A model generated the notes under the pieces. The model had not been told where the DNA came from. It saw only the letters and a program-made list of their open reading frames with translations, and searched no databases. The translations under genes and the position numbers were made by a program. A stretch of 63,651 bases of DNA, the filler included, from Dugesia japonica (Eukaryota), in NCBI GenBank assembly GCA_001938525.1. It is 5 parts of 5 records of this genome, joined end to end, with 100 filler letters (N's around TTAATTAATTAA, not from the genome) between each part and the next. Parts side by side here need not be neighbours in the genome. Positions count along the whole stretch, not along the records: positions 54,740 to 63,651 come from MQRL01631254.1; 4 more parts are not named here. The stretch is one strand, 5' to 3'. Below, in pieces: positions 726-63,651 of this stretch (position 1 is the stretch's first letter; every line of letters begins with the position of its first letter).

Positions 726-959
726 CAACCAACGTTTCCGATTTCTTTTGTTTCCGCTGAATTTAACATCTTCCCAATCTCGAAATTTCTTGCTTGTCCG
801 TTTTCTTGAACTTTGATTAGTCTCTGTATCACTTTTAAATCCATTATCGCTGGAATCACTGTCTTCATCATCCGGTTCCAATCGTACTACTGTATGCTTA
901 ACAGTTCCATGTCTCATTTTTAATTTTCTAATCTCATCATGATGATGCTTCAACAATAG

Positions 960-2088
960 AAATTTAGCACAAAATGTAAAGAAACCAATTATTTACTGCC
1001 ATGTGCATTCACCAACTTTGAATATACTATAAGTTGACAATAATTGTGTAAATACCAATTTTGCCAACACACAAATAACAAACTATGATAAGCATAATCA
1101 ACCTTGTTATTTACATAGTTTATTATTTTTATATCTTTGGCATTCAATTNNNNNNNNNNNNNNNNNNNNNNNNNNNNNNNNNNNNNNNNNNNNNNNNNNN
1201 NNNNNNNNNNNNNNNNNNNNNNNNNNNNNNNNNNNNNNNNNNNNNNNNNNNNNNNNNNNNNNNNNNNNNNGGTTGATATTAAGACAATTGGTGTACTCTC
1301 TACCCCAATTCCCTCCTTTTGAATGTTGTTCACCATGCTTCCTACCTGCTTTTTATTTAACCTTTTTACTTTTTGATTGTCCATTAATCTGGATCCCTTT
1401 TCTTCTGTTTTTTGTCTAGTTCCCTTTATTTGCGTGAAAGATAACTTTTTTAATAATGTCAATTCACAAAAACCACGTCTTTCTTCATATAAGAGTGTTG
1501 CGAACCCCGTTCGTCATGTAGAAAACTTTGAATTGCAATGTGGATTTCCAACCATATTTTCTGTTTCCACTTCGAATATTCCTTCATATTCTCTCAATTC
1601 AACTGTATAATCCTCTAAATCAACTACTCGATTTACCAAATTGTTTTGCCTTGTTTTTGTTCGACCAGTACAATCACCGTCTTCGTCGATATTTCCACTT
1701 CTAAAAATTGCTTCTGCCAGCGTCTTTCCGACTTCTGCTGTTAACGTCATTTCGCTATCGATAAATAATCTTCTGGTAATATATTTACTGGCCTTGGTAT
1801 GAGTTTTGCTGATAATATAGCAGCGTAACTATTCGTTCCACAGTAATATTCGAACACTGCCTTTTGAACTCTACATTCTCTCACTTTAGTTCTGTAAAAC
1901 TCCTATTCTTGATAAATATAATATACAGATGGCTTCAACATATCCAATCTATCGGGATAAGCTTCATTGCATTCTACTACATCTACCAATGAATATATGC
2001 CTGATGGAATAGGATTTTTGCAATCATATGCTAACAAACTACCTGTTTGCTTTATTAACCCTAACATCATCAAAGTAAATAATATGAT
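960..2088 (-). pseudogene. Env-like class III fusion glycoprotein (chuvirus/gB-type), internally deleted
   Basis: Hydrophobic signal IILFTLMMLGLIKQTGS, then LLAYDCKNP..YSLVDVVEC, ECRVQKAVFEYYCGTNSY, GNIDEDGDCTG, CNSKFST*RTG..FCE and INYVNNKVDY. The sequence then jumps to a hydrophobic tail FVICVLAKLVFTQLLSTYSIF...IIGFFTFCAKFLLL. As I recall it, this Cys and motif pattern matches chuvirus-like glycoproteins found in LTR elements. Confidence 0.75.
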
Positions 2089-4180: not shown

Positions 4181-4790
4181 TTCCAGTTAAAGTAAATACG
4201 TCATACCCTCTCCCAAGTTGATCATATTTACTGATTGCTTGGCTGCTTGGCCAACTTTATGTTGTTCTTGTGGACATGATACCTTCAAGTGCCCGAACTT
4301 TCAACATCCGTGACACTTAATTTTTCCGTTTGAATTGACTGTGTCTCTATCGACATTATTATTATTTGCTTTGCTTCTGCAAACCTTGGCTACATGGCCC
4401 ATTCGTTTACAATTTTCACAATTTAGATTTTTCTTTTTGCAATTCTCTGTAGTGTGATTATAATAATCAAATTTTGTACATTGAATACCCTTATTCTGCT
4501 CTGCATTCAATTTAACTTTACAATCTTTAGATATGTGCCCCTTTTTATGACATCAATAACACTCAACCACTTTTGGTTTCTCTGAATTTATTGCAAAGGT
4601 GCTTTTGGTATTAATTAAGCTTGTTTCTATCAACACAGCTTTCTTGGTTAGTTCCTCGTAGTTTTCTCCTACATATAAGCTCAACGCGTTTCGCACCGCT
4701 GGCTTTAAACCTGACCACATCTGGTCCCTTACAATTAATCTAGTGGCATCATTCCACTGTGCTTTGTTTCCGAAAGCTCTTTCTGCTAAT
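4181..4790 (-). pseudogene. Gag C-terminal half with four zinc knuckles
   Basis: Reads ILAERAFG...VRDQMWSGLKPAVRNAL, then CY*CHKKGHISKDC, CTKFDYYNHTTENC (degenerate), CENCKRMGHVAKVC and CHGC*KFGHLKVSC. Same frame as ORF 3428-4180. Confidence 0.85.
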
Positions 4791-4806
4791 ATTTTATTTG
4801 TCTTGT

Positions 4807-5065
4807 TAAGTTAATTATCATTATAATTCTTGTTGTAATGATTAAAACGTAACGTAAATTATCAAATTTTAGTGTATTATTAAGTTAATTCCATTACAAT
4901 TTTTATAGTAATGATTTAAACTACATAATATTATCAACATTTTTAGTGTAATAATAAGTTAATTTCATTGCAATGTTTATTGTGATGATTTTATTAAAAT
5001 TGCTAAGTTAACTATCATTATAATTTTATTGTAATGATTTAAATTTAACATAATATTATCAAATT
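4807..5065. repeat. Degenerate ~74-bp AT-rich tandem repeat
   Basis: taagttaa(t/c)t...catt.caat...gtaatgattt recurs at ~4807, 4881, 4955 and 5004. It truncates the gag region. Confidence 0.65.
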
Positions 5066-5389: not shown

Positions 5390-7173
5390 TAAATCGTGTC
5401 CGAATACGGTCAACATGGTGCTCTAATTGTTTAAATGGATTCGGAAAAAATGCAGCTTTTGAAAAACATGAACCTCTTTGTAGTAAAATCCAGACAGGTA
5501 CCACGTTATATACCATGCCGACCGATCCTAACTTATAATTTAAAGACTACTCAAAAACTATAAGTTCTCCATTTGTCATATACGCTGATTTTGAATCAGT
5601 ATTATCACCAGATGAAGATTATTATCAAAAACATTTACCTATTACAGCCGGACTTCTGTTAGTTAACAACTACACTAACGCAAAAAAATATCAAGAATTT
5701 ATTGGAAGCGACGGTGTTTTTAAATTTTTGAAAGAGATTGAGGAAATCAGCAAGATAACTGTGCATCCGTATTATATGAATAATGGTAAAAAAAGTGAAT
5801 ATAACTCTGGATCAAGAAATTTCCTTTGTTGCTACCAAAACATGTCATTTATGTAAGAAATCATTAGTATGTTCTGTTAGAGACCACGATCATTTCAGAG
5901 GTGAATACATGGGTGCAGCATACAACAGTTGCAATCTAAAGAGAAGAATAAATATGCAATTACCGGTTGTATTCCATAATTTAAGAGGATATGACATGCA
6001 TCATATTCTTAAGTATGGACTTCGTCAGTTCCCATATTGGGACCTTAGCTGTATTCCAACTACAAGTGAAAAGTTCTCGTGTCTTATTGCACATCAAACA
6101 AAGTCACCTACCATTCGATTTATTGATTCATATCAATTTATCAACTCATCTCTAGATTCAGCTGTTAAAACCATTAAAACATATCCTTTAACATCATTGG
6201 AATTTATCGACAACAGAATTATAAGGACAAAGGGGATTTCAGATACAATCACGATACCAATTTACAAGTAATGGTTAATACAAAGGAAATGCCACCAAAA
6301 TGGGATGGAGTTAGTTATGAAGAACATAAAACAGCGGTGGATATGTGGAAAATCTTGAAATGCAAAAACTTACTGGACTATATGCTGGTGTACATGATGC
6401 TGGACGTCTTTCTCCTAGCTAACTTTTTTCAGAAATTCCGAGCCAAGTCATTAGTTCACAACCGTCTGGAACCCTTAAATTTCTTTGGCATTCCAGGTAT
6501 GAGCGGGGCATCTGCTCTGATGACTTTAAACACACCCATCGAGCTTTTGACTTTTAATGACATGTACGCCTTTTTTGAAGATGGAATTAGAGGTGGGCTC
6601 ACCTTTGTCAACAAACATCATGTTATTTCAGATGAAAACGCAGAGTTGTTATACATCGATATAAATAACCTGTATGGTTTGGCTTTGAGTCAGAAGTTAC
6701 CATGCAAAGATTTTGAATGGGTATATTGTGGATTAGAAATAGTTTTAGAAGAATGTAAATATGCAGATCTCGATTCGTTACAATATGGATACACTCTAGA
6801 AGTTGATATTGAGATTCCCAACGAACTTCACAATTATCTCAGTGACTTACCCATTTCAGCCGAACATCAATGTGCTCCAGGAAGCAAGGTCAAGAAATTA
6901 ATGTTGACTCATTATTCAAAGGTCAATTACATAGTGCACTTGAGATTACTGCAAATGTACTTGCAATTAGGCCTGCGAATTACAAATGTTCACAGGGCAG
7001 TTAGATTTTCACAAAATCATATTTTCAATTTCAAACAATTTAGAATAGGAACAAAAAACCACTAGCTGTATAGTTTCTTAGGACTAAAAGTCGCATTAAC
7101 CAATAATGACGACAAAAGAGTATGGACTGACAAAAACATAAGCGTACCATACGGACATTATTCTATCTCGTAG
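5390..7173 (+). pseudogene. Protein-primed family B DNA polymerase (Polinton/Maverick/adintovirus type), frameshifted and internally deleted
   Basis: Zn finger CSNCLNGF...HEPLC, ExoI VIYADFES, EndoVII-like CHLC..VRDHDH..G...CNL, ExoII FHNLRGYD, RFIDS, ExoIII Y...DV, GIRGG and motif A YIDINNLYG. It then jumps to the C-terminal KVALTNNDDKR...PYGHY*. Confidence 0.9.
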
Positions 7174-11845: not shown

Positions 11846-13686
11846 TTACATCATCTCTTTAAAACTTTTTTTAATTTTTTCCACATTTCTTTCGATCATC
11901 TTGTCTTCTGAACTCTTCAGCAGGTATCGCTGTTCATGAATATGTTTTATCACCTCGTATGGACCTACATATCTTTCTTTGTCTTTTGATCTGTTTTCTA
12001 CCTTGGTAAACACATCTTCTCTAACTTGAAAATATCTCTTTGTTGGTGTCAACTATTCAGAATTTCATTCTTTTCTCCATTACTGAACAATCGTTCTCTA
12101 TGTATCTTCTTACCGAATATCACATCTGCTGGACTTATCTCAAAAGTCTTCTGGCTTGTTGCATTTAGTGTATATACAACCTTTGGTATTAACTCGAAAA
12201 TTTTAACTCGACCAATTTTTATTCTTTTTATCTTTTAATGTTGCATTAATATAATCTCTGATCGTTCTGAATTGGCATTTTACTATTTCATTTATATTAT
12301 GATGATATATACTTGAAAAGCAAATCGCTATATTGATTGAATCTGTCATCTCTTTAAAACCATTCGATTCGAAGATCTTTCCGCAATCTAGATGTATCTC
12401 TTTTGGAGCACCAAATCACAGGATTCATTTTTACATAATCGTTTTCTTTATTGATTCTTCATCTTGTTTGACTGGGGCTGTTAAAAAATATGTATCTACT
12501 AAATTCATTTATTATGTCACATATACATATTCTCCGTCCCAAGGTTTCTTGTAATGGTTCACAAATATCTAAATAAATACTTTCAAGGGGTTCATAAGCC
12601 TTTAACTTTAAAGTTTCCGCCTTTGTTCTGACTATTGTTACTATCTTCATTTGGCACGCTGTAAATTCTTTTATTAGTTTTGACGCAGTTTCTCTTAAAT
12701 CTTCCATATCATATTCATTTTTCAAATAATTCATCACATTTTCCGTAACTGTGTGAACCAATAAACCACGAATTTCTTTTACCATTTGAATTTTCTTTTC
12801 TGTTGGGATCCATATTTTGCCATCTTTTGTTTTTATTATATCTTCTATTAATCAAAGGTTTTTACATATTATATTTCTTATATCATTTGTTATCTGTTTA
12901 ATTTCTTCTACGTTACTTTGGCATTTATATGTATCTGAATATGATATACCATTAATTGTTCCTGTCTTTATTTTTCTTTCTTTTGGATTCTCATGATCTG
13001 TTAAGCATTGTACACATGTACCACAATTCATTGTCGACAGCATATCTGCATTCGTATGTTTCGCAACTTGTCTAAATTCCAATACCATATCTAGTCTACT
13101 AAGAAATTTCATCCAAGTCTGAAATTGTAGAGTAATTGGCTTGTTTGTCTTTTTCATAAATGCTATCGCTTTGCGATCTCTTCTTACCAAAAATCTTTTT
13201 TCATACAGATTATGTTTGAAATGGTTACCGAAATAGTAAATAGTAAAAAAATTCTATTCTTTTTATACAATATCCTTTTTCATGAGCTGACATTGAATGT
13301 AACCCATATGCAATGACTTGTTCTGAACTTCTTTCATCTATTTGCAATAAAACTGCTCCGATGGCATCAAAACTTGCATTTGTATCTAGTACAAATATTT
13401 TTTTGATATCTGGAAAACTCAATATTGGTGCTTTTGTTAATGCCTCTTTCCTATCATTAAAAGCTTTGTCAGAATTTTCACACCACACAAGTTTTTTTAT
13501 TGTTACTTCCACAAAGCTCTTCCAAGATTCTTGCTTTCTTTGAGTAATTATTGATAAACCGTCTATAATAATTGCATATTCCCAAAAAGCTTCTCAAGTT
13601 CTTTACACATTTAGATCTTCCGAAATTTGGAATCGCTTCAATATTTGTTGGATTCGTTCAAATTCCATTCTTGTCTATGACATGTC
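11846..13686 (-). mobile_element. Ty3/Gypsy pol remnant (RT end, RNase H, integrase with GPY/F)
   Basis: APILSFPD..FVLDTNASFDAIGAVLLQ..VIAYG, PLESIYLDICEPL and RYVGPYEVIK. Multiple stops and frameshifts. Confidence 0.9.
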
Positions 13687-27737: not shown

Positions 27738-29900
27738 AATTTGATGATAAAAAGCATCTTCCATGGTCAGCATGAATCGATCTTGGTGAGCCAAACTTCA
27801 GTAAGCAATATTCACTCAAAATCTTGATTAAAGTTTAACCACCTTGATTTTTTACTGTTTTTAGTGAAATATATTTGCTATACTGATTGCAAATATATAC
27901 TTTTTTCCTGTGATTGTCAATTTAAATGGTCCACACAAATCTATATAAATAAATTCAAGTGGTTCATGAGACGCTAATTTTAGGCATTTTTCTTTTGTTT
28001 TCATTGTATACACTTTTCTTTCATGAGATATTCTGCAATTCTGAATATTTTTCTTGACATATTCTTCAAAGTTTTCTATATAATATTTTTGTTTCTTGAA
28101 ATGGTATACCTTTTGAAATCTAGCATTGTATAACTTTTTGTGCTTTTCCGTAATTTTGTGATTTCGTTTATCCCTAGGAACATATATTTTATTATTTTTA
28201 AAAACAATTCCGTCTTGATATTCAAATTTTACTGTCTTTTTACTTTCAATCCTATCTATTGTTTTATTAATTTTTTTATTATTTCTCTGCATTTCACACT
28301 TCATGATATTTTCATTTTTAACTAATAAACGAGTTTGGGTTTTCTAGTTTTAGCATCAGCGTGTTCTATATTACATTGTTTACACAACTTGTTATTCAAT
28401 CTTGATAAAGCATCTACGTTTGAATGTTTCTCTTCTTTTCTGTACTCCAACTTTTTATTTAAACTATTGATAAAATTTGTCCAATTTTGAAATTGAGCTG
28501 AATTTGGTTTTTTTGTTGTTAAAATAATGTTTATCGCTTTATGGTTTGGTCGCTATACAAATTGTTTTCCGTATAAATAGTGCTTAAAGTGTTGAGTAAA
28601 GTGAAATACTGAAAGTAATTATTTTCTCGTAATACAAAAATTTTCATTATTTACAAAGATTAAATCCGTATTACATCTAATTCATTATTAAAGTAATTAT
28701 GAAAATTATCAAACGAATTACTCGAATAAACAAAAAAATCTAAACAATTTTCAGAACATTCATTCAAACATATATTATAAACAGACATAAAATCACATAA
28801 ACTCACAGTATTACATTTATATTTAATAAATCTTGAATCAAAGGCATCACTTATTCCATCTAAATAGCTTTGATCATTTCCTTTTTGGTTGAAGCTTTGT
28901 AGTTTTCGTAAACATTTGAGCATCTCTAGTTTGAGAACAGACATTATCTAGTGTAGCAACTCGATCATATCGAATGGAAAATATCCTGTCATAAAAATTC
29001 TGAGTTCTATAATTATCATAATTTTTTCTATTGGTAATATTCTTCTCTCTGTGATTGTTTCTTAATTGAAAACAATTCCTGCTTAAATGTCCTCTCCTTT
29101 GACAAGTTGAACAATGCAAATTTTGGAAACTTTCTTCTGACATGGTTGAATTCTTGGTATCCATAACATTGAAAGTTTTTTTATAATTGTCAGAATTCAT
29201 TGGTTTTGTATGGGTTGGTCTTGGAATTGTCTTTGATTGTTGGTTTTATATTAATTTCTTGATTCTTCACCGTAATATTTTTTTTAATTATCTCACTTTG
29301 AACATATGGATACGAATTGTATTTTTGCAACTTGGGCATAAATTGGTCTATTGAGAATCAAAATATGTGCATTTCGATTTCTTTCTGCAACTGATTTTAA
29401 AATTTCTTTGATATATTTCACTGGAGTTGGTCCTCATTGATCTTCAATTTCCTATTTTCCTGATTTTAATTTGAGAAAAGATTCTGTATACTTAAATCTA
29501 GAAACTTCTTCTTTCATTGTTTTATCATCCAGGGATTACTTCAATAAAAAGTGGTGCGTTTAGTCGACGTCAATTTGTTTCGCATTACTTTCTCTACGTT
29601 CTTTTCAACTTATTGGATATATTCTTCGATTGAATTATTCCTTTTTCAATATTGTAACGTATTTTGTGTCTTCTGCCAAATTACTAGATTAGCGATTAAT
29701 TTTCGTAATTTTTCTTCATAACTATTTCAACCATTGAGCTTTTCTAATTGTCTTCTAGAATCTTCGTCCATAAAAGCTCGAATTAATATATTTCTTTGTT
29801 CTGGATTGATTTGGATTAAATCGAANAAATTAATTAATTTTTACGATGAATTCTTCTACATTCATATTTGAGAAGAAAATATTCGGCTGTGGAATTAATC
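27738..29900 (-). mobile_element. Ty3/Gypsy remnant: gag with knuckle, RNase H end, integrase
   Basis: CSTCQRRGHLSRNC (~29075-29117); FCITRK*LLSVFHFTQHFKHYLYGK; integrase KIYVPRDKR...PLEFIYIDLCGPF. Confidence 0.8.
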
Positions 29901-32119: not shown

Positions 32120-34433
32120 TTGAGTGAAAAGAAAAATAGAAACTGAGCGTAGAATATTTAACTCGGAATGGATAACCAGATATTTATTTACTTTATTGCA
32201 AGATAAGATAATTTGTCTCGTTTACCGTGAAACAATAGCAGTTCCAAAGGAATACAATCTTCGTCGCCACTTTGACACCAAACACCAAACATTATCCAAA
32301 TAAGATAAAGAGAAAAAACACAAAGAAGCGACTTTGATGTCAGCCATAAGTAGAGAGTAAAACATTTTTAAGAACATTGTAGCAGAGAATAAAACAGCAA
32401 CTCGAATAAGTTTTCAGATTTCAAGGGAAATTGCTGCTGCCTTTATTGAAGATGAATTTGTGAAGAAATGTATGTTAATGGTAGTTTCTGATTTAAGTCC
32501 AGTAAAAAAGAAAATGTTTGAAAATGTTACCTTATCATGAATGACAGTACAAAGAAGAATAACTGAAAATATCAATGATCAACTCAAAAGGAAAGGTCGG
32601 GAATTTTCATTCTTTTCTTTGTATATAGACTAAAGTACAGATTTACAAGATATTACCCGACTTATTGTTTTTATTAGAGGTATTGACAAAAATTTTAATA
32701 TTACTGAAGAGTTTGTTGAAATATGCTTCATGTCTGGACGTACAATAGGAAAAAAATATTTAATGAAATGAAAAAATGTCTGACCAACAATTTGAATATT
32801 AATTTTACTAACTTGGAAGCCATTTGAACATATAACGCCCCAGCTATGTGCGGTAAAAAATATTTGTGCTGTCACACTCCTTCAAGAATTTACTGGGAAG
32901 AAAATCATACAATTGCACTGCATTGTACATCTCCAGGTTTTATGCAGCAAGGTTTTAAATTTTGAACATGTAATGAAGGTGATAGTTTCTGTTGTTAACT
33001 ATATTCGATCTAGTGGACTTAAGCATAGAACTTTTAAAGCTTTTCTAGAAGAAGTGGATACTAACTTTACGAGTTTACTCTACGATACAGATATTCGTTG
33101 GTTAAGCCTTGGACGGACGCTTCAGCGTTTTGTTGATTTGAAATCCGAAATTGTTGCTTTTCTCCAAAATGAATTACGAAAATTTCTTGACCTTTGAGAT
33201 AACGCTTGGAATTTTGATTTATTTTTCTTCTGTGATATTACACAGCATTTGAATGATTTGAATATGCAACTTCAAGGAAAAAACCAATCTTTATTTGAAT
33301 TATTAGCTGCTATGAGAGCCTATTGAGGTTGAAACTTTTCAGAAGTCAATTATTAAAAGTTGAAATGTCTCATTTTCCTACTTGCAAGCAACAAATTCCC
33401 ACCATAAGTATACAGATCTAGGACAAAAATATGCAGAACAAGTCGATTTATTAATTGAAGAATTTGAGAGTAGATTTACCTTATCTGATAAAACATACGG
33501 TCATCTAAAATTAATTGAAGATCCATTTTCTGTTGAAGTTGAACATGTACCACTTAAGCTGCAGTTTGAGGTTATTGAACCCCAGTGTTCAATAATATAT
33601 AAAAATAATTGCAGGGAAAAGAACTTACTGGATTTTTACAAAAGTTTGGACAGTAACAAATATAAAAATCTTATAGAAGTTGCAATGAAAAATGTTCAGC
33701 ATTTTGATAGCACTTACTTAAGCGAGCAAATCTTTTCACTAACAAATTTTAATGTCTCACAATTTTAATTTTAAGTTCATTAATTGTCTCACAAATAACA
33801 CATGGAAGAAATTTTAAGAACAGTAACATCAAATATGACACTAGAATATGATATGCTTGTCAAGGAAAAGAAGTGCAATACTTCTCATTAAATTTATATA
33901 AATATTAATATTTTATTTTGTTTATTGTGAAAATTAAACTTTGTGTAATTATTCACTTTTTTAAAATTTTTAACCATTGATCTGTAATATAAAAGAATTA
34001 AATATTTTCAAAATTACGAAAATAAACTAAGGCGTAGATCAAAAAAGTTTCAAAAAAATGTTTCTTTTTAAAATTTTTATTAAAATAACCAACATTTTTA
34101 ACAAAACGTTTATTTTTTCCAAATTTTCGATTTTATCTGAAGAAGAATAAGAAGATAAAATCGAAAATTTGGAAAAAATAAAAAACGTTTTTTGAAAAAT
34201 TTTTGTTATTTTAATAAAAATCTTTAAAAAGAAACATTTTTTTGAAACTTTTTTATTCTACGCCTTAGTTTTTTTCGTAATTTTGAAAATATTTAAATTT
34301 TTTATTGATATTTTATTTAAAACACATTTTTTCTTTATTATTATCAAGCATAGTCTTCTATATTATTTATGGCCCTCCACAATTTTCCCATAAATTTGTG
34401 GCCCTTGAAAGCAATCTAAGTTGTGTAGGCCTG
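32120..34433 (+). mobile_element. hAT transposon of the Charlie/SPIN/GTF2IRD2-like group, decayed
   Basis: RIFNSEW..Y...CLV..TIAVPKEYNLRRHFDTKH, D*STD, HCIVHLQVLC, RWLSLG and STYLSEQIFS. The 3' end gtggccc...aagttgtgtaggcctg is followed by 8-bp gccTAaat. Confidence 0.9.
33998..34296. repeat. ~300-bp near-perfect palindrome (hairpin MITE-like) within the hAT 3' region
   Basis: Arms 33998-34138 and 34153-34296 are reverse complements around a 14-nt loop. Confidence 0.9.
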
Positions 34434-35779: not shown

Positions 35780-37390
35780 AAGCGTTTATTACAACAGACG
35801 TAGTTAAATGATTTGAATAGTGGATTCAAAGATTGAAGATTTTAAAACAAGGTGTAGAGAAGGATTTTCTAAACTTTCAGATCTTTGTAAAGATTTAATT
35901 AATGCTTTTAAATATCGAAGACTTAATGAATCTTTTATTTTTTTTAAAAAGTTGAGAAGTTGGCAGATAATATTCTGCGTTACCAGTTAACGAAGGAAAA
36001 ACTGGTCTAATTCCTTTTTAAAAATTCAATGGATGATAAAGAAGTTCAAAAGGAAAGTAACATGCGAGATATAGAAGATGTTGAAAATATGAAAGAAGTT
36101 ATAATTAAAATTTTTGGATTAAAAAAGAAAATGGAACCAGAATATGGAATATCAGCGTTGAAGAAAAAATTATCTATGCAACAATAGCACCTAAAATTCC
36201 AAATTAAAATAATAAATTTAATAAACGAAGATTCAATGGAAATTTAAATCAAAATAAAAATTATGAGCAGAAAATTGATTCAAAATTTTATCGAAGAAAT
36301 ATTGGAAATTTCATGTGACGAAATCATGTACTCAATTTTCAAACGTTTAGAGTAAGAAAATGTTGAGTATGCAGAAACAAAGGTCATATACGCTCACAAT
36401 GCCCTAATGTTAAATGCTCGCATTTTAAGAATCCAGGGCATCTCCGATTCCAATGCCACAAAATTAATCCCATGAGAGCAGAAAGAAGACAAATGTATAA
36501 CAAGACACGAAGATTTCAAATGAATGCCTTTGATGATGATAATGCCTGTCCCAGTGATGGAGTAGATAAAAAAGAGAATTCGGGACATGACAAAGCTCTG
36601 ACGAGAGAGGATTCTGTTGGAGCAATAAATCTAGGTTAGATAATAATGTTTTGAGCCCTAATGTATGTGATATGAAGGCTTGTCAATGTTTGTTTGATCT
36701 AAATAAAGAAAATTTAAAAAAATTGAATGATTTAGTTTACTTCAATGAATATAAATATTTGTTGATTAATGATTTATTTAACAAAACTTTGGAATATAAA
36801 AATGAATATTTTATAGATAACATTTTAATCTCTAATGATGTTTCAGTTTTAAATAAGGATTTAAATAATGTAAATTTAATAAATAATTATGAAGATAAGA
36901 TTGCGTATAATAAAATGTCAGAAAGACAATGTTTAAAGTTAAAATTAAATAACGAATTAAATGTTAATTGTTTACCTGATACTGGCGTCAAGATTAATGT
37001 GATTGACTATGCAATATTTTTAAAATTAAATATTATTAAAATTAAAAGTGAATATATTAATGTTACTTGTGCTAAAGAAAGCCAACTAAATACAATAGTG
37101 AGAATTATATTAAAAATTACACTTAATTAAAGAAATTTAAAGCGTAGAAGAATTATATACAATTTAAATATCTATGAATATTCAAAATATTTAGAAAAGA
37201 ATAATACTATTAGAAAATTTAATTTTGGTGATAAAGTTTTAATTAAAAGAGAAAGTCCACGTAAAATTGAAAACAGATATGAAAAACCAGAAATAATTAC
37301 AGAGAAAATACATGATAAAAGTTTTAAATTAGAACTCATTACTGGTAAAAAAAATAATATTTAATGATTAAAACACTTAAAAAATGGGAA
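35780..37390 (+). mobile_element. Gypsy remnant: gag with two decayed knuckles, protease, integrase tail
   Basis: C*VCRNKGHIRSQC and CSHFKNPGHLRFQC; CLPDTGVKINVI; RKFNFGDKVLIK...KIENRYEKP. Confidence 0.75.
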
Positions 37391-47500: not shown

Positions 47501-48361
47501 AAATTTTACTTAATTTATGAATTCTTATACACGACCCCACTATAATATTTACGTACACATTCAAATATATTTAGACATTAATATATTTATACCTGTTGTA
47601 AGTGAATGTCTTTATGAATTAGAATAAGTTCTGGATTGTAAGCATGGATCTTGCCACCTAATCTCAACAAGTTGTTATGATTAGAGCCCCATCCATATAA
47701 ATTCCCAGTAGACATTAAAGTAAATGTATTATTATTTCCAGCACATATATCGATTGCAACTCCGACAACATTAAGAGATGAAATATGTGTAGGTAACAAT
47801 ACATGATTTTCTACTAAATCAAGTTCTGAATTAGATGAAGATATTCCAATAAAATCAGAATGTCCCCATGTGTAAACATCTCCACTTTTTGTTAAAGCTA
47901 CACTAAAATTCTGTCCACAAGCAACTTTTAGTAAAGGTTTCTAAAAAAAATTCTTGAAATTACCTTAAAGAACATAAAAACTACTTTATGAAGACTAACT
48001 AATACTGGACTGAAATGATCGTTAACATCCCCAACTCCTAATTTACCATATGCACCTTCGCCAAAAGCAAAAAGCTTTAATCCATCTGTTGATAGAGCAA
48101 GTGTGTGATTTACACCACATGAAACAAATCCAATCTTTTAATATTTATCAGTTATATTTTATAAAATATATATTTCAAATTGTCAAAAAACGATTTTAAT
48201 ATAAATGTAAAAAGAATGAATATAAATTGAAGTAAATTTCTTTTCATTCACACGAAAAATATTTTAATAAAACAATGATCATAAATTATATAAAATTTTT
48301 AAAGGTAGTAAAAGTCCACTATAGAAAAGTAATAAATTAATTTAATGAAATAACTTATTTA

Positions 48362-51400: not shown

Positions 51401-53399
51401 TTTTTTATCATACATATAAAACCTGAAATTGACAGTAATGTTTAACTTTCTGTTGTGATGGATGTATTCTGACAAAATATGTCACTAGCGTATTGTGTTT
51501 TAGATTTTATTTTAATGAATAGTTAATTTTTAAAATAATTTTTTAGTTCCAGTGTGACGTACTTTCAAGGAGGGTTCAGAAATTTGTTACAAGGAGGAGA
51601 AGACTGGGTAAAAATTGTAAAAAAAATAACTTAAAAATCTAACATTATCCAAAAAAATCTTCAAGATGCAACAATTCAAAATAATGTACAGAATATTTAT
51701 ATCGAATTTCAATAATTGGTGTTTCTTTATTTTTTTTATATTTCTTTGTTCTAGTATGACATTAACACTTTTAAATAAATAATTACATTCATATATTACA
51801 CGATGTACCGTAAATTTGGTAACATTAACATGAATAAATCTCTCAAAGATTTACAATTTTACAAAAGTAAAATTGCAATTGTTTAAAATATATTCTTTTA
51901 TTCGTTCCATGTTATTTTCTACTATGTTTTACTGTCATTTACCAACTTTTTGTTTGATATCACATCCTTTTCACATTGATCGACAATTTTAACCTACCTT
52001 TAAAGTTTTTTTTAATCTATGGCACTACAACCAAATATTTAACGAATTTTATCAATTTGATCGATGAATCCTGACACAATTTGCTAATTACATTTCACAT
52101 TACTTAATGTTTAATAAACAAAGTGGTTAATTATTAAAATCAACAAATTTAAATTACAAAATTAATAAATTAAATTAACAAGTGATATTTTATTTTTCTA
52201 AAACATTATTCAACAAAGCCATCTTTATTTTCAATGCAAAATCTTAATACATATTCATATGATTCTTTTTATGAAAAACCCTATTAGCTGTTGAAATTGA
52301 TAGTTTAATGGTAAATTAAAGTCGTATTGTTCAGTGGAAAATATGGCAAATTAATTAGAAAAAATGACAACTTTTGCCTGGAAAATTTAGCAATTACCTT
52401 TCAACATTAAATATAAATTTAAACAATATTCAGTAAGCAGATTAATAACTATGAAATCTTATAAATTTTTCACGTTATCATAGTGATAGTATTTTATCTA
52501 AATAGAGACAAATATTTAAATATTGTCGTTTGAAGGAATGATAATGTATATATCGGAATATCTATGATATTCCAAGAAAATCATGAGAAAACCTATAAAG
52601 AAAAAATAATTTAACATACCATTCAAGACCGGAACATTGATAATTTGATAAGATTCTTCTCTCATAAAGGGATTAAATATAACTTCTAATCCTTCACCAC
52701 AAGCCATTAATTTATTCTCACAAGTAATTAATAAAGTCACGCCACTACCACATACAATTTGTTGTATTCCATCAATACTTGCTAAAGTTGGTTTAACCCA
52801 ATCAGCTTTTGTTGAAAACCCCAATTCTCCTTTAATACCACAACCCCAGATAAACGTTGAATTTGAATACTCCTTTATCCAATAATCTGGTGAATTCTGA
52901 TACCACTGGTAAAGCTCAATTTGTTTTTTCATAGTCCAGTAATGGTTATTCTAAATCGTATGACAAATAATGTAGAATAAAACTCAAGTACCCATTTTGA
53001 TTCTATATAATGATGAACAAGTTCTTCTGTTCCAACGCACCAAACCCACCACCATTTAGGAATTATATTTACTGGAATTTCACATTCAAAACAAACGGAT
53101 TGTGTAAGTTTCACCATTTCATCAATCATGAACAGCCAATCCAAGTGGTGATTGGGAAGAGCTCTACCATTTATATTCAAAATATGTCTTAATATTCCGC
53201 GATTTTGGTATGTTTCGTTGGTAATTTCAAATAAACATGGTGGTTTAAAACTATTATTTAAATCAATCGGTTCCATAAAAGAACATGACGTGAATTTAGG
53301 AATAAAATTCAATGAAATTGCGAATTGAATTAAGCATTGGAGATATTGAGAAAAAACAATTGAAAATCCAGATTTCACAGATTCCACTTCTTCAAGAAA
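44593..53399 (-). CDS. HERC1: HERC1-like E3 ubiquitin ligase, partial (pre-RLD2, RCC1-like domain 2, start of HECT region)
   Basis: GT-AG exons 53399-52992, 52950-52620, 49270-49089, 49038-48889, 48134-47985 (donor uncertain), 47940-47593, 45228-44925 and 44879-44593 splice in phase to 720 codons with no stop seen. RCC1 repeats include GEVFSWGIGSHGKLGHG, SCGVNHTLALSTDG..FAFGEGAYGKLG and VACGQNFSVALTKSG. The post-RLD segments ARLIFL..W..WQF and PVFIQTCRQV...LRLPWRAWK match HERC1 as I recall it. Confidence 0.85.
45660..46230 (+). mobile_element. Gypsy gag remnant in a HERC1 intron, same family as 35780-36300
   Basis: Shares ggaaaactg...aaattcaatggatga.aaa..gtt.aaaagg and aaaataaaaattatga.cagaaaatt with the 36 kb copy. 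Confidence 0.6.
46400..47410 (-). mobile_element. 3' fragment of an RLE-type non-LTR retrotransposon (R2/NeSL-like)
   Basis: CLKCSYHLETETHVRCHC knuckle and RLHHDVLELLA, then decayed endonuclease GVKTP...ARNTNINKYMPL and ISVGCL. Confidence 0.7.
49326..50041 (-). mobile_element. Small TIR element (Tc1/mariner-like derivative) in a HERC1 intron
   Basis: ta-CCAGGTGGTGTATG at the left end and CATAAACCACCTAG-ta at the right end. The left end is duplicated internally at ~49590-49646. Confidence 0.5.
51284..51635. mobile_element. Harbinger-like MITE
   Basis: tta|GGGGCCGTCCATAAAGTATGTCACGC start, with internal gtgtgacgtacttt and G-rich tracts. The 3' TIR is eroded. Confidence 0.55.
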
Positions 53400-54739: not shown

Positions 54740-55379
54740 GTATATACCTCTAGAAGAGACAACAAGGAGAACAACAGCAAGAATAAGAGAAGAAAAGAAT
54801 AGTAAAACCTCGAAATTCAACAAAGGAAAAAAAATAAAAACTTCATGTTTAAATTTAATAAAAACTTTGCTTGCATAAAATATAATGGATTTTGTACTTA
54901 ACAAAATATTTTTAAAAAATTAAATAAAAAAAATTAATTATAAATAGATAAATAGGAAAAGTTCACTATTTATATATCAATTATAATTATATTATAAAGA
55001 TTGCAAATTATATCCAGTTTCCATATGGGTATTTCTGACTTCTATTGTATCTCGCAACCGGTTGTTTTGATTTTGTAAATTACATTTATCCTTTTCCAAT
55101 TCTCCTATTGTCTTCTTTAATTTGATATTTTCCTTTTCCAATATTTCTTTATCTATATAAATATATCAAATCGAATATCATACAATTAAATAATAGTAAC
55201 CACTGTTGAATTACTTTAATTATTTGGTCAAAATTTTTTTAAATTAAATAAAATCACAGTTACAATTATTGAGAGAATAATTGTTTGACTTAATCATTGA
55301 TTGCATATTTAAAGCTTCAGTAAATTAAAAAAGAAGGTTTAAAAAGTTTACAGAAATATATGAAAGCCTAACAGGCAAA

Positions 55380-56100
55380 TAATGATCTGAATCTGCAGTG
55401 GATAACGATTAATTTTTTCAAGTTGATTAAAGCAGAGTTAAACATAGGTCATACAACAGTTCCGGTCAATTGTGAGAGGTAAAAAACTAGAACAATGGGT
55501 ACCACATGATTTAAATAAGAAACAAAAAATCGGCGTTTTAAAGTTTGATCCTTGTCATTTTTGCGGAACACGAATGATTCAAATGAACTTTACGACAATC
55601 GCAAGCGTCCCGCATATTTATTGGACCACAACCAAGTCCCAAAAATACTAACCAAGACCAGAACATCACAAAATAAAAAACATTATGTTCACTGTGTGAT
55701 TGTATATTAAAGGTATTATTCACAAAAACCTTTTTACTCATGGAGAAAAAATTAAAATTAACAAAAAATGCCAAAACTTCGGCCGAAATTGATTAACAGA
55801 GTAAGTTCTAATTATTCTTCATGACAATATCCGGCCACATCAACACCTTGCAAAAACGACTATAAGAAAGTTGCCTGAATTTGGATACGAAATAATTCAG
55901 AATCCACCATACTCACCGGTCCACTCAATTACGGTTTATCATTTATTAAACATNNNNNNNNNNNNNNNNNNNNNNNNNNNNNNNNNNNNNNNNNNNNNNN
56001 NNNNNNNNNNNNNNNNNNNNNNNNNNNNNNNNNNNNNNNNNNNNNNNNNNNNNNNNGAGATAAATTAACTTATTTCTCATCGGTAAGAATGTATCGATTG
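55380..56100 (+). mobile_element. Mariner transposase remnant
   Basis: KKLEQWVPHDL, ILHDNIRPH and GYEIIQNPPYSP...YHLL. Confidence 0.8.
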
Positions 56101-56888
56101 CTATGTGTTATTTCAATTACTAAATATTATTTGAATTTCTTTATTTGTTTTATTTATTTTTCTTTATTTTAATGAAATCTTTATTTGATTTAAAAAATAA
56201 AGTTTAAATGACAACGTATTACATATAAATGATAATATATTATCACATATTATGTATTAAAAATTTATTCAAAAACTACAATTTTAAAAACTTATTCAAC
56301 ACGCATTAAAATATTTTCAGGCAAAATAATATTAGGAATTAATTTTATTTTATAACTTTACAATTTCCACAAGGAATTGGCTGTATTAATACTCATTCCA
56401 AAGCAAGAATTTCAGAATCTACATGTCCTGGTGATTACTATGTTATCCTTATTGATCAATATGATTAGAAGGCTCAGCATATATAGAACAACGCTAATAA
56501 TTCCTATCATAATTCTGTGGTGCAAATGTTCTATAGATTTCAACTTTTCCAGATCAATGATCAGTTGTTACCATTTATTTGTATTATATTATACTTTTTC
56601 AGTATTTTTTAAACTTAGTCTACTTCTAAACTAAAGGATAATCTCAAAAATCCGATTATAAATCTTAAAAAATTAATAAAATCAATAAATAAAATTTAGT
56701 GGAATCATTTCTGCACAATAAATATTGTTATCTATAAAATAACAATACAAATATTTTAAGTTTGTTACTTTCAAACAATAATTATAACAAACCTTTTCTA
56801 TGCTTTTTGAATTCTTCAATCATTTCTTTGCATTTCTCACAAAAACTTTCTATTTAAAGAAATAAAATAATATTTATTTGTATTTGTT

Positions 56889-56890
<2 letters not shown>

Positions 56891-56957
<67 letters not shown>

Positions 56958-57007
56958 NNNNNNNNNNNNNNNNNNNNNNNNNNNNNNNNNNNNNNNNNNN
57001 NNNNNNN

Positions 57008-57071
<64 letters not shown>
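56891..57071. repeat. (AAT)n microsatellite spanning a gap
   Basis: Direct inspection. Confidence 0.95.
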
Positions 57072-57073
<2 letters not shown>

Positions 57074-57722
57074 TTAGGGTGTCCCATAAGTCTTTTCGTA
57101 TTTTAGTTTTATTATTTCAAATTAATTTTTCTAATTGATTTAAATATTTGAATCTATATGATTATATATAATTTTGAAGAAATTTAAATCCTTTATCAGA
57201 ATTAAATTAATATCTATTAAATAATTGTAAATTATTGTTTTATTTATTTAAAAGAAATGTGGATAAATTTGAAATTAGAGTACTTTTAAAACACTATTAA
57301 AAACAAAATGTCCATACAACTCAAGCAGTCAAGAAAATATGTGAGGTGGAAGGTGAAGACTTTGTTTCCATTCATGTTGCTCAAAATCGGTTCAACAAAT
57401 TTAATCTGGGTCAGGATAACCTTCAAGATCAAACACGAACTATAACAATGGATCTCGAATATATACGCAACGCACTGGAGGCTAATCCATCGAACAGCAT
57501 TCGAAGATATTTTGGCGAACTCGGTATTTCAAAGACATCAGTTTTTAGACATCTTCGTTCAATGGGCACGGTGAACAGATGATATCGACAAATTCCACAC
57601 GAATTAACAGAAAAACGTTTGGAAACGTGTCAAATCCTTCTGATGCCCGTTTTATTTGCCAAATTGTGACTTCAGATGAAAAATGGGTCTACTTAGATAA
57701 CCGTAACAGACATAATCAATAT
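57074..57722 (+). mobile_element. Mariner element, 5' half
   Basis: ta|TTAGGGTGTCCCATAAG start; IRVLLKHY...AVKKICEVEG, IPHELTEK and IVTSDEKWVY. Confidence 0.8.
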
Positions 57723-57759
57723 ACAATCAAAACATTTTCAGTGGCACTAAATGATCGTA

Positions 57760-58125
57760 TCATTTCACCATACGTGTTAAGGTTTCAGCATTCAAAACGT
57801 GTTTGGAGTCTTCAAAATGAACGTTACTTCTAATTATGCATGATAGGAACAATCAAACTAGATAAAAAAATAATGATCTGAGGATGCTTTGCCTCATATG
57901 GTGTTGGAAGCCTTTGAAGGTTAAAAGGAACAATGAATAAAGAATAATATCATCAAATATTAATTAGATAAATAGTATCTTTAGCAAAAAACTTGTTCCC
58001 AGGTGGTAATTACATTTCCCAGCAAGACAACGATCCGAAACACAAAACAAAATTTATTCAAAAATATTTGGAGAGGAAAAAGATTAAAACTTAGGAATGA
58101 CTATTTCAAAGTCTCAGATCCAACC
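57760..58125 (+). mobile_element. Tc1 transposase catalytic-domain remnant
   Basis: IMI*GCFASYGVGSL, GTMNKE*Y.QIL and QQDNDPKH. Confidence 0.8.
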
Positions 58126-58707
58126 CGGGGGATATTAACATTAATAATACGCCTGAACCGGGAATATTAATGTTAATATTAATATTGTCCAGAGGATATT
58201 AATGCTAATATTATTATTGCCCGGTGGTTATTAATGTTATTGTTAATGTTGTCGGGGAAGCGTCAAATGTTGTTTGGAAGAAAAGTTGCTTAACTACTTA
58301 CAAATTTGAAGTTTTTGGTTAATTCCAACAAAAATTTAATTTCCGGTAATTACGCAATGGTTACATTTATTTTAAATTGCACCCTAAAAATAAATATAAT
58401 TGAAATAGTAAAATAATTAAATAACTAAAATTTTCTGCAAGAAATTTTCCTTATAAATTAAATAAAAATAAATAAAATAAATAAATTAAAAATATTGAAC
58501 TAGGTACACATAAGAAATACGAGCAAAAGTTACATAATCAAATCGTTCCGGCTAAATATACGTAACATTCTTAAGGCACTATTATGTAATTATGTGCACA
58601 CATTACCTATATTTATCCTCATACTAAATACACGTGAAATTCTTACACAAATAAAGATATTCTCTCTCTGCGAGTGTAGTGCGGCCGTGCGCCAGTGTCT
58701 ACCTACT
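58120..58707 (-). mobile_element. Polinton-like terminal region
   Basis: ccggg-atattaa repeats at 58120-58260. Ends gcggccgtgcgccagtgtctacctact (reverse complement AGTAGGTAGACACTGGCGCACGGCC), parallel to 7390-7829. Confidence 0.6.
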
Positions 58708-58789
58708 TGCATATGTTTCAACAATATTTAATTATGATATGCTTGTTTAGCGAAGGGGAAGTCTGATCCTGTACGCTCATATCTACCTT

Positions 58790-59370
58790 TTATTCATAAA
58801 CAATTCTATAAATACAATAACTTCAAATACAACGTTCAATCCAAAATTCATGTCAAAACACTGATCTTATAGATCAATAAATGTTCATTGATTGTCTATA
58901 CGTTTTTACAATGATTGGTTCACCACTTGTGATTGTTTTGTGTCTTGTCAGATGTGTGCGTCCTACATCCGATTTATCTGCCATAAAAACATCTTATTTA
59001 CTTTCAATTATTTTCAATAACCGCTGATCCTCTTTAATCTTTAAAATATTTAAGGCTCTAGTCAATCACTATACCTTTTTAAATTTATCTTCCAAATTTC
59101 GCTTCAATATTGCAAATGTAATTTTCGACTTTTCATCCATTTTGATATCAACCTTTCGCATAAGTTGATATACAAAAATCTTCTGCTTATCTATTCCTCC
59201 TATCAGTTCTGGTGTTACTCTTTCAGCAACTAAGAAAGTAATCTCTTTGCAAACGTCATTTATTATCACTCCGGTTCTAACTTTCCCAACAATTTCAGGT
59301 GTACTATTATTTGCAGAATGCAATCTTTCATCACTCATTTCTAAATTTACTCGTAATTTATTAAAACAAT
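58790..59370 (-). mobile_element. Gypsy protease / pre-RT remnant
   Basis: SANNSTPEIVGKV...FLVAERVTPELIGGID and IFMADKSDVGRTHLTRHKTIT. Confidence 0.7.
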
Positions 59371-62300
59371 TCTGTCAGAACGCCAATCTAATGGTAAAAT
59401 TGAGTAAGCCAGTGACTCTACAGGACGCTCTGGCCACATTGCGAATTGTAGCAGATAAACCATCGGAACGAATATTCAAAGTAGAAGGACAGGCAGAGAA
59501 AACTACACCGAGGATATCAGATTTCATCCCTAACACACAATCTATGCTGAAAACCCTGACCCCAGGCCAAGAACGGATTAACAGGAATGATAGACCTAAC
59601 TACCCCCGAGGAAATGGTGGAGGATTTAATGCACCTCGGAATAACTGGCAAAATAATCGAGATAGACAATGCAATTCCTGTGGAAGAAGGGGACATATAG
59701 CCCGGGATTGTAGAGGTAGAGGCAATAATAATAACAACAATCGATTTTGTACTTATTGTAAAAGAACCAACCACAATGTGGAAACGTGTTTATTGAAAGT
59801 TCCAACTGTCTGTTATAAGTGTAACAAAAGAGGGCATATGACAAAGGAATGTCCTAGCGGAAATCAAGTACAGCAGAAGAGACTGGCAAAAAGAAATTTG
59901 CTAAACGAACCACACAAGAATCAATGTAATATGGTTAGAACACATAGGCAAATTTTTAACCAACATGACGAAACTACAGAGGTTACAGAAATGGAGGATA
60001 CTTAAAAACGAATACTAACCACATCACCAGAATTCTAATGGACCAATGAAATCATCTATTAAACCATAGAAACCTCAACGACAACCACCGAAAGAAGGCG
60101 AGTGACGAATCAGCTTCTTCGATTATACCAGCACCCACAAGTACACGCAAAAGTAAAAGCTAACTTACATCGCCGAGCTTTATAAAGAAACTAAGTTAGA
60201 AGATTATGAATTTGAAATTCAATATGTATGGCATAAAAACCCAGAAGTCATTCTAAAACGATTTAAACTACCACTAAAAGGATTGACAGTACGACACTTG
60301 AAACAAGCACTTAACGAAATAAAATGGAGCGAAGTAAACGGTATCAAAAGTAGGACGGTAAACCCGTTGCTCGAATTACCACCATTTAACGATCAGCAAC
60401 AATGGAATGGAAAATGGAATAGGCACAGATTGCAAATAGGTAATATAGGAATCAATATTCTTCCGGATGACAAGAACCTAATTTATTATGAGACCCGACT
60501 CCATGAAACAACATTAATCAAATTAATAAATTAGGGATTGGTGTTCAGGCCACAAATAGTAATTCAAGAAATAGAAACAGAGGAGTTGTATCATAATCTC
60601 GAAGAAACATTCTAAAAGGAAATAGTTACCACCCAAGCTCAAAGCTACGTATGAAAAGTATTTGAGAAAGTAGGAGTAATGGACTATCCAGAAACTTCAT
60701 GAGACAATAAAGAGAAAAGTATACTTAAAACTTACCAATCGATTAGTAGAGTTGTTAGAAGTCATAAAACTGGTCAATAATTTTAAAAGCGATTGAACAG
60801 AATGGTTACCAGTGCATTATGGTTGGGTAATATCCAATATGGTATTATCAGATTACCAAGGAAACATGAAACTGACACTCACGGGATTAATGGTAGAAGA
60901 TCTGGAATCGGCGCTTAATCAAGCAGGCTATCCATGAATAACTGATAAATACGTATGTACTCCAAGTGCTTTAGTGGATTTTAATGCCAAAAAAAGACAT
61001 CTATACGATTTTGGGGTAAAACCAGGAGAAGAAATGGAAATTTTAATATTGGACAAACAATTTGGTATCGACTATGACATATAGGTAACGAAAACCGGAA
61101 GATCAGCATTAGAAATCATGGGAGAAATGGAATACCTATATAAACAAGAAGTGGAACCTATTAAAATAAAGATACTTTCCACAGTATTGGGAAAGAAAGA
61201 CAAACTGACCAAGAAAAAGAGGAAGCAGTTATTGATGACGCGTAACGATTTTCTCAAACAACGATTAAAGAGGAAAGAAAGTAAATGCAACATGATAAGG
61301 ATGTGGCAAATGCCGGCAAGAGAAGTAGTACCAATGCGCAAAGTAGAGGAAATGGTTAACCGAGTACAGATAGAGAACGAGAAGTTACCCCGAAACACAT
61401 ATTGGATGATAATGAATAGAATTTACGATATATATGATTGGTTGGAACTACCGGAGGAAATTGATAATCAATGGCTCATGATTAGACAGAAGTATGCCGA
61501 AGAAATATTGGCAACTACCAAGATTCAGGACTATAAATTATACTTGAATATAGATAAAAATGAACAAGAACTGACTAAATACAGCCGATTAAAACCACAA
61601 GGAATAACCATGATGGATTTAATGGATGCCATTATCGATAAGTGACAAGAATATTGAATAAACATGGTACCACTATTCATAAACGGCAAATTGGTCGAGA
61701 CAGATGATGAGGACGAACACATATTCCAATGCCATGCAAAGCCCGGAGAAATATGCGAGTTAGATGTAGAGGAAGAGCCGCGGACAGCTCAATCACCAGA
61801 TCTCGAGGAACGAATGGAGGAAATAACGGAATTATACGTATCTGAGGTACTAACGGGTATAAAGGAACAAGTAAAAGAAAATCAGAAAATACAGAATATT
61901 GATAAGTTACCAATAATTATCACAAAATCAGTTGAATTTCCAAAAGGGATACCGACAATACGTGATATTTGGATAAACTACACGAAACGAATAACAGATG
62001 AATCAGCCACGTTTCATGCTATCAATGATCTGTTACGAGTAACACGGAAAACTCGACCAGTAGTGAATATCAAAGTATATTGGAAAATGATGAATAACCT
62101 ACGGGATCTAGCAACCTATGGACAACTCAGCTTGTGAGCTCGAGCACAATGGTGAAAAGAGAAAACCTTATACGAAGAGGAAGTACAAAATACATCCACT
62201 ATATCTAACTATTCTATCAGAATCAGCCTTTTTAGTAAAGAGGGAAGCATAAGGAAGATAGATATTATAACCCTGGAAGGATTAACTATCCATCATATCA

Positions 62301-62649
62301 TAAAACCGATCAAGACATGGTTATAGCCAAAACCAATCAAATCATATAAAATACAAGCGGGAGCCACAATGATCATAGCACAAATGTATTATAATGCCTA
62401 TCCACAATATGGTTGGCAACCAATAAATCCACAACCACCACAGGTATGGGCACCAGGTCCTATGTACAACAACCTTTAAATGAGTCCACCACAAGCTCTT
62501 AATATGGCATTATTGACGGAGAATAATCTCGCAACCATTGACAGAAGAACAACGGATCAAAATTTACGTCCTCCGAATAACCAGATCAATGAAGATGATA
62601 AATTAGAAACTCAAACCGTATGCATGATGATTTCTCAGAGAGCGAAATT

Positions 62650-62975
62650 ATTACAAAAAAGGATAAAAATAGACGGCAGATGGGTAATAGCCATTATCGA
62701 TACTGGAGCAAGTATGACGTTAGTCCACAAAAGAATATTAGAGGATTATCGACTACTGCGAATAACAATTACTAAAGAAGTTATCATCACAGCCTCTGGA
62801 GAAAAAATCTCACTCGTTGGGGAAGCAATATGTGCAATAGAAAGTGACGGAATCCGTCTATGGCATAAATTACAAATAATGAATGAACTAACTTTCAACT
62901 GCTTATTGGGACTGGACCTCTTACCACGTCTATGTCCAGAGGGAATATTAGATATGAGGAAACTAACGATTCGGA
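62650..62975 (+). pseudogene. Retropepsin-like aspartic protease 1
   Basis: IKIDGRWVIAIIDTGASMTLV...TASGEKISLVG...CLLGLDLL. Confidence 0.9.
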
Positions 62976-63269
62976 AAAATCATGATCGCGAATATGCGCC
63001 GGTAGGTTATCAGAAAACTAGAATAATAACCAAACAAAAACGACCGCAGCAACGGAAACAACCAATTACCAACCAACAACTACGACTCTCATCAGGCAGA
63101 GGTGAGCAAAATAACTCAAACCAAGATGGTTGGAAAACTAAAAACACGCCTACCATGATAAGAGACGATTGGATAAGATTTCAAGAATGAGAACCAAGGT
63201 GGAAAAACAAAAAACAACTTAACCCCAATCGTAACCCTTCGGAGTTAGTATGCGCAAGTCTCAACGGCG

Positions 63270-63600
63270 TACCCGTACTAACAATTATGGTTAAAATCAA
63301 TGATAGACCTACAACAGCATTATTAGACACAGGAGCAACAATCTCGTTGTTATCAATAGAAGAAATCGCAATAACAGAATATAAAAATATATTACCTACT
63401 AATACTACGGCGGATGTGGCAAACGTAAGCAGTCTTAAAATTTTTGGGGAATTAGCTTGTGAAGTAGAATATCAAGACAACAAAATCAAGCACAAAATGA
63501 TAATAGTAGAAATGGCTGGACAGTGCATTTTGGGTACGGACATTCTCCCAATTTTGATGAAGAATGGCATATTAAAATTCTCCACATTACAGTTGCAATC
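63270..63600 (+). pseudogene. Retropepsin-like aspartic protease 2 (not in the ORF track)
   Basis: VKINDRPTTALLDTGATISLL...VANVSSLKIFG...CILGTDIL. Same frame as protease 1, separated by one TGA at 63188. Confidence 0.9.
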
Positions 63601-63651
63601 CTTGGAGGGGTATACCCACGTTAAAGATCATGAAGTATTCACTACAGAAGA

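Follow-up and report, generated by a model that had tools for sequence, protein, structure and literature searches.

Two diverged retropepsin domains in one frame of a probable Ty3/gypsy-type fragment of Dugesia japonica, and multi-protease polyproteins among its relatives

The analysed DNA, here called the window, is a stretch of 63,651 nt from the Dugesia japonica assembly GCA_001938525.1, made up of five parts joined with 100-N fillers between them. All coordinates count along this whole stretch, of which positions 54,740-63,651 correspond to MQRL01631254.1. This last part contains two retropepsin domains in tandem, PR1 and PR2, and the pair is real and not an artefact. The carrier is, on balance, best explained as a copy, decayed and truncated at its 5' end, of a large LTR retroelement of the Ty3/gypsy type, a grading that covers the best explanation as a whole. 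Its features are as follows:

59373..60005 (+): 3' part of gag with three CCHC zinc knuckles and, by eye, the end of a capsid-like region, within the ORF 59169-60005
60004..62479 (+): decayed middle region of ~2.5 kb with three to four diverged module copies and at least two frame changes
~60157-60530, 60803-61080, 61397-61790 and 62075-62320 (+): repeat modules of the middle region, from pairwise comparison
62618..62629 (+): VCMM at residues -27 to -24 from the catalytic Asp of PR1, a predicted candidate for a cleavage site or N-terminal strand
62651..62974 (+): PR1, a complete retropepsin with the catalytic Asp codon at 62699, a profile envelope of 62651-62935 and the fold in the AlphaFold model
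62975..63247 (+): coding linker rich in Q/R/N/K, predicted to be disordered (AlphaFold, frame statistics)
63188-63190 (+): in-frame TGA followed by G, the sole stop in the linker, due to decay or marking an ORF boundary
63248..63259 (+): VCAS at residues -26 to -23 from the catalytic Asp of PR2, a predicted candidate for a cleavage site or N-terminal strand
63278..63649 (+): PR2, a complete retropepsin with tail and the catalytic Asp codon at 63326, running off the window

A preliminary description of this locus had claimed two complete retropepsins in the same frame, 209 codons apart. This was borne out by the motif positions, with IIDTGAS of PR1 starting at 62693 and LLDTGAT of PR2 at 63320 (a gap of 627 nt), and by separate Pfam matches. 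Both domains contain the catalytic D[TS]G and the downstream hydrophobic-hydrophobic-Gly motif, which appears as LLGLD at ~62903 in PR1 and as ILGTD at ~63527 in PR2, and each alone exceeds the cut-off of the Pfam family gag-asp_proteas (31.8 and 30.6 bits vs. 28.2). PR1 and PR2 are identical at 34 of 106 positions (32%, E 5e-14), and their alignment scores 129, a value that none of 1000 shuffles approached (maximum 58). At the three codon positions, identity is 0.46/0.59/0.42, with the second position being the most conserved, and the duplication is therefore old. This divergence agrees with an ancient duplication in which selection acted on the protein, and it supports the earlier view that the two domains are not a recent copy of each other.

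Among solved structures, the best sequence matches of the window domains are Ddi1/DDI2 and ASPRV1 (E 5e-4 to 2e-3), and the Pfam family Asp (pepsin) is not among the five families matched by the two-domain protein at E<=0.05. A common C-terminal signature was found in PR1, PR2 and one other domain, that is, in three of 100 domains, for a pattern that was drawn post hoc. The tail of PR2 scores 15.1 bits against a profile of RT-proximal protease tails and that of PR1 10.8 bits. Since the PR2 tail matches such tails, an RT probably lies downstream of PR2; the window ends ~30 codons after PR2, before any RT of this element.

The linker between the two domains is rich in Q, R and N and holds a single in-frame stop, as previously described. 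It contains one stop in the frame of the proteases compared to 4-10 in the other five frames, and its A-rich composition is the same as that of its neighbours. No nested LTR, TSD, polyA signal, polypurine run or flanking repeat was found in the linker. A nested element is unlikely due to the frame continuity, the same composition and the lack of a polyA signal, polypurine run or flanking repeat. The scenario in which an LTR or TSD would separate PR1 from PR2, named beforehand as a possible refutation, thus found no counterpart in the linker, and the placement of both proteases in one retroelement is supported. No significant homologues of the linker were detected among the fetched proteins. 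The linker as part of the duplicated unit was rejected, as its score of 25 lies below the shuffle maximum of 58.

For the TGA, 1.7 stops would be expected in the 114-codon linker at the same-frame upstream stop rate, and since the linker makes up 19% of the core codons, a single stop falling there is unremarkable. The core, consisting of gag, PR1, linker and PR2, has one stop in 600 codons compared to 18 in 808 in the middle region (Fisher p 0.0013, in a test that allows for codons one step from a stop and uses region borders chosen after the frames had been seen). Since the core is far less decayed than the middle region, there is some room for the TGA as an inherited ORF boundary. No stable RNA structure was found downstream of the TGA (z -0.09 and +0.31). 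From the next in-frame ATG it is just 13 codons to the catalytic Asp of PR2, so that a restart there would truncate PR2, and reinitiation after the TGA was rejected for this reason. Close copies of the two-protease family were absent among 63 representative matches (best 38% identity), none of 31 pattern matches in prokaryotic genomes was confirmed as a copy, and no long relative of the two-domain protein was present among 3,879 candidates.

The gag part is supported by Pfam zf-CCHC (E 9.8e-9), with two stretches passing and the third knuckle assigned by eye, and it has no stop in 210 codons. Its 5' end is cut at ~59,370 by a protease fragment on the opposite strand. This fragment, at 59177-59392 (-), is the C-terminal half of another retropepsin and abuts the truncated gag. 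Between gag and PR1, the frame upstream of PR1 is heavily broken, with the 18 stops in 808 codons mentioned above. The modules of this middle region lie in tandem at a similar spacing of 678-719 nt and match each other (unit 3 vs. 4 E 1.7e-9, 1 vs. 3 E 1e-4, 2 vs. 3 E 0.008). The region (60004-62479) is decayed far more than the flanking gag and proteases. A ubiquitin-like identity of the modules, suggested by eye, was unconfirmed by profile, hhalign, Pfam, fold and atlas: the profile score was -1.2, the hhalign probability of 0.35 lay within the shuffles, the model reached a pLDDT of 44.5 with a beta-beta-alpha start, and neither Pfam nor the atlas returned a ubiquitin family. No env-profile match and no hydrophobic or membrane segment was found in the middle region, and the scanned pieces, which cover part of its codons, gave no Pfam match to BCL2, BIR, ankyrin or MATH cargo. 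The window copy of the two-protease element is a broken fragment, and its worth is that of a pointer.

A second decayed element with Burro-like order occupies positions 1-5000 on the minus strand:

~4579-4253 (-): gag knuckles
3709-3443 and 3097-2939 (-): ubiquitin-like matches
~2540-2100 (-): BCL2-like stretch, by eye
2088-843 (-): env, with a deletion and an N gap; this element (843-2085) is the sole match of the env profile
719-438 (-): single protease with DSGS, then the region that precedes RT

Other Gypsy fragments are located at 12152-13684 (-) with RT/RH/IN, at 27861-29245 (-) with IN and a gag knuckle, and at 36591-37178 (+) with a protease. Further pieces were recognised by eye, which we take to be a Polinton-like family B polymerase at 5780-7065 (+), a hAT-like transposase at 32796-33768 (+) and Tc1/mariner at ~57280-58110 (+). 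RCC1-repeat exons of a probable host gene are present at 47587-47940 (-), by Pfam, and at 52516-52950 (-), by eye. In addition, there is a 317-nt imperfect palindrome at 33989-34305 (88% self-complementary), and (ATT)n/(ATA)n runs border many of the assembly gaps.

Relatives were sought in 1.84 billion representative proteins, and 11 of the 63 representative matches hold two or more protease domains. In a second search, residues 133-1800 of P0003 were used as the query and the best 120 of 155 matches were used; domains were mapped on 181 proteins and an RT tree of 104 rows was calculated. It contains a clade of 16 rows (SH-aLRT 100) of Burro-like GAG-ENV-POL elements with the order gag, ubiquitin-like domain, fusion glycoprotein (Pfam Monjiviricetes_fusion), PR, RT, RH and IN, in which the ubiquitin-like domain and env are missing in the N-truncated rows. 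Nine of the twelve clade members with env and RT have two proteases before RT in one ORF of 2,855-4,057 aa, which is stop-free by construction since the relatives are predicted ORFs. Seven of these nine polyproteins carry a third protease after the integrase, and the other three of the twelve members have one protease. Among the proteins with exactly one RT in the best 120 of 155 matches, two or more proteases are present in 11 of 17 clade members compared to 4 of 85 others, a comparison based on a search that favours multi-protease matches since its query holds two proteases. The single-RT count covers 102 of the 120; 18 proteins with none or several RTs, the latter apparently joined gene models, were dropped, and P0096 was added by hand.

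Within one ORF without RT, P0002 combines four proteases, and a search with this four-protease region returned only P0002 itself among 6,393. P0002 and P0030 both have a longest contig of 21,743 nt, and should the two be successive ORFs of a single element, its protease domains would number six. Extra proteases also occur elsewhere. In P0151, P0153 and P0161, which form a separate RT clade (100), the extra protease lies between RT and integrase, and in P0137 it follows the integrase. P0005 and P0009, both of the GAG-ENV-POL type with an env that is gB-like, each contain two related proteases; P0005 has an integrase-type zinc finger between its two, and the second domain of P0009 has lost the DTG. 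P0032, with 381 aa, consists of two tandem retropepsins that are Ddi1-like by eye and group together (98/95), possibly a cellular two-domain retropepsin. Read most simply, these sequence comparisons would mean that proteases were duplicated on several occasions, the window pair being one such case.

The protease tree comprises 100 domains and 122 columns and is weak at its deep nodes. In it, the 32 extra domains of the Burro-like clade all fall into a single group (98/97) that is separate from the RT-proximal proteases, and this split holds in a 34-row subset (98/81). Thirty of these 32 accessory domains keep D[TS]G. Leave-one-out profiles classed 32/32 accessory and 15/15 canonical domains correctly, with all 32 accessory domains being positive. 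Window PR1 and PR2 fall on the canonical side, with accessory minus canonical differences of -7.7 and -9.2 bits, in the range of unrelated Gypsy proteases. The trees place PR1 outside the accessory clade and do not join it to PR2; by AU tests, a clade of PR1, PR2 and P0006 is not rejected (p 0.33), and the same applies to a position of PR1 within the accessory clade (p 0.29). Further within-lineage protease duplications are seen in P0005/P0009, P0136, P0137 and P0032. The window pair looks like a separate duplication of an ordinary pol protease, and since the element lacks an env and has ordinary-type protease scores, its parallel with the Burro-like clade may be convergence.

Retropepsins are active as homodimers, as a passage of PMC11313796 states. 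The reading that is somewhat favoured for PR1 and PR2 is that of two separately released retropepsins, each forming its own dimer and sharing an enlarged polyprotein. An ancient duplication of the pol protease in this lineage would have given two copies that were both retained, with PR2 as the ordinary RT-proximal protease and PR1 as an extra one after the added middle modules. Both would be made within the polyprotein, be cut free at similar sites ~25 residues before the catalytic Asp and dimerise as normal retropepsins. They may then share the cutting of a polyprotein with more junctions, by means of an extra dose, a diverged specificity or both. In 49 clade domains, hydrophobic residues are enriched at positions -27, -26, -24 and -23 from the Asp (0.55-0.63), with 0.39 at -25 and mostly 0.2-0.3 in the flanks, and the VC-x-x motif of both window domains lies within this zone. 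Similar motifs stand ahead of other modules at 59925, 61286 and 61658. The catalytic residue of the HIV-1 protease is Asp25, and by analogy we infer that these hydrophobic and VC-x-x motifs may be release sites.

Neighbouring catalytic Asps in the relatives are 133-485 aa apart (576 in one case) and 1,149-1,193 aa apart across RT-IN, and three proteases per ORF are common. Given this variable spacing and the distances of more than 1,100 aa across RT-IN, the proteases cannot all be fixed pairs. In the AlphaFold model, both window domains are folded (pLDDT 73-95 in 10-residue blocks), residues 168-264 are below 50, and the pTM is 0.38. Foldseek matches the model to Ddi1, EIAV, SIV and HIV proteases with a TM of up to 0.73 to monomers. 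Compared to tethered HIV-1 dimers, it has an rmsd of ~12 A and leaves PR1 and PR2 unpaired, which is weak evidence since the alignment had only 19 rows; alignment A2, in which all single-domain rows were placed on PR1, was left out. Of the two explanations offered earlier, a tethered pseudo-dimer is unsupported as the main reading because of the variable spacing, the odd counts, the protease after the integrase, the candidate cleavage site before each domain and the unpaired model. The other, two specificities for processing an oversized polyprotein, gains support from intact polyproteins of 2,300-4,060 aa with two to four catalytically intact proteases; the division of labour itself we infer.

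It is possible, if unlikely, that the TGA is a real ORF boundary, where PR1 ends an abundant gag-accessory ORF and PR2 starts pol via readthrough or splicing, so that each ORF would have its own protease and dose. This would agree with the stop-free gag and PR domains next to a broken middle region, with ORFs that end after accessory proteases in P0002 and P0007 or begin shortly before the RT-proximal protease in P0080 and P0081, and with the 21,743-nt longest-contig figure shared by P0002 and P0030. However, RNA structure is lacking downstream, a TGA followed by G differs from the usual leaky context, PR2 would be truncated if translation restarted at the next ATG, and nine intact relatives have no break between their two proteases. 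The 1.7 stops expected in the linker from the upstream rate and its 19% share of the core also speak against a boundary. Pairing of PR1 with PR2, either in cis via the 110-residue flexible linker or as a released heterodimer, would form one asymmetric site as in pepsin or in an engineered tethered HIV protease and is considered doubtful. The model leaves the domains unpaired, a separate candidate release site precedes PR2, the two-domain protein gave no match to Pfam Asp (pepsin), and relatives have three domains per ORF or domains more than 1,100 aa apart, although the catalytic Asp is retained in both halves, the length of the linker is sufficient, the post hoc C-terminal signature is common to both (3/100 domains), and within-lineage pairs recur in P0005/P0009 and P0136. 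A similarly doubtful conjecture is that retroelements repeatedly evolved multi-protease polyproteins and that in at least some, including the window element, diverged proteases next to each other form an asymmetric active site in cis. If so, maturation would be freed from the need to crowd Gag-Pol in the particle, and such pairs would stand naturally between the homodimeric retropepsins and the pepsins with their single chain. As a further part of this conjecture, the accessory proteases of the Burro-like elements could also cut env or host proteins.

That PR1 is a tolerated by-product of a module-duplicating tendency, with no distinct role, is improbable. The middle modules are themselves tandem duplicates with a spacing of 678-719 nt, and three clade members manage with one protease; nevertheless, at an identity of 32% PR1 has retained the fold as well as both catalytic motifs, conservation is highest at the second codon position, and 30 of 32 accessory domains in the relatives are intact. 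An origin of PR1 and PR2 from two elements joined by nested insertion or recombination is highly improbable. Nested fragments are abundant in the window, the element itself is cut at ~59,370, and the two domains are not nearest neighbours in the trees. Against this stand the frame continuity, the same A-rich composition, the single stop compared to 4-10 in other frames, the lack of an LTR, polyA signal, polypurine run or flanking repeat, the common C-terminal signature and the lack of a gag remnant before PR2.

According to the textbook plan, LTR retroelements and retroviruses have a single protease per element. This plan is broken repeatedly, as one clade of giant env-bearing elements keeps a distinct subfamily of extra proteases, intact in their catalytic motif, after env and after the integrase, and several other lineages, probably including that of the window, duplicated the protease separately. 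These are natural pairs for studying the divergence of retropepsin specificity and the processing of polyproteins of 3,000-4,000 residues. A literature search, judged mostly by titles and the beginnings of abstracts, yielded no description of a retroelement with several proteases. Extra domains may already be shown in curated repeat databases or in the original Burro paper (figures of Grohme 2018).

In the accessible text of PMC6431247, planarian Burro elements are described with three CCHC knuckles, a ubiquitin/SUMO-like motif and BCL2; an env lies between gag and PR, a dUTPase-like domain follows PR, and one PR is named. GAG-ENV-POL errantiviruses are reported from flatworms, nematodes and bryozoans in PMC13524379, where the word protease occurs once in the text. 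Like Burro/GYPSM1 and flatworm errantiviruses, the window element has three gag CCHC knuckles, extra modules from gag to protease and a long polyprotein. It differs from Burro in having no env, no BCL2, BIR or ankyrin detected before PR1 and a PR1 that is not of the accessory type by profile, and since no env was found, it was not filed as Burro. The multi-protease clade has the same order of gag, ubiquitin-like domain, env, PR and RT as Burro, and its env resembles, by eye, the Smed_errantivirus_1 row in the PMC13524379 supplement. The env of the second element (1-5000), which has Burro-like anatomy, is also like this row by eye, a resemblance that would point to a flatworm-like host.

Canonical Ty3/gypsy (Metaviridae) and retroviral proteases share with the window pair the D[TS]G, the hydrophobic-hydrophobic-G-x-D motif, the fold, the position after gag and an Asp ~25 residues after the candidate N-terminus, whereas the window element has two diverged intact domains in one frame. 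Retropepsins belong to MEROPS A2. The cellular retropepsins Ddi1/DDI2 and ASPRV1, of which Ddi1 joins a ubiquitin-like domain to the retropepsin, differ from the window pair, which lies behind gag in a mobile element. A duplicated retropepsin that became a single chain is the long-assumed route to pepsin, and multi-protease elements provide a natural test of whether a duplicated retropepsin can begin working in this way. Pepsin (A1) and engineered tethered HIV-1 dimers resemble the window pair in having two Asp-bearing halves per chain, but in the window pair the halves are connected by a 110-residue disordered linker and each is a full retropepsin monomer.
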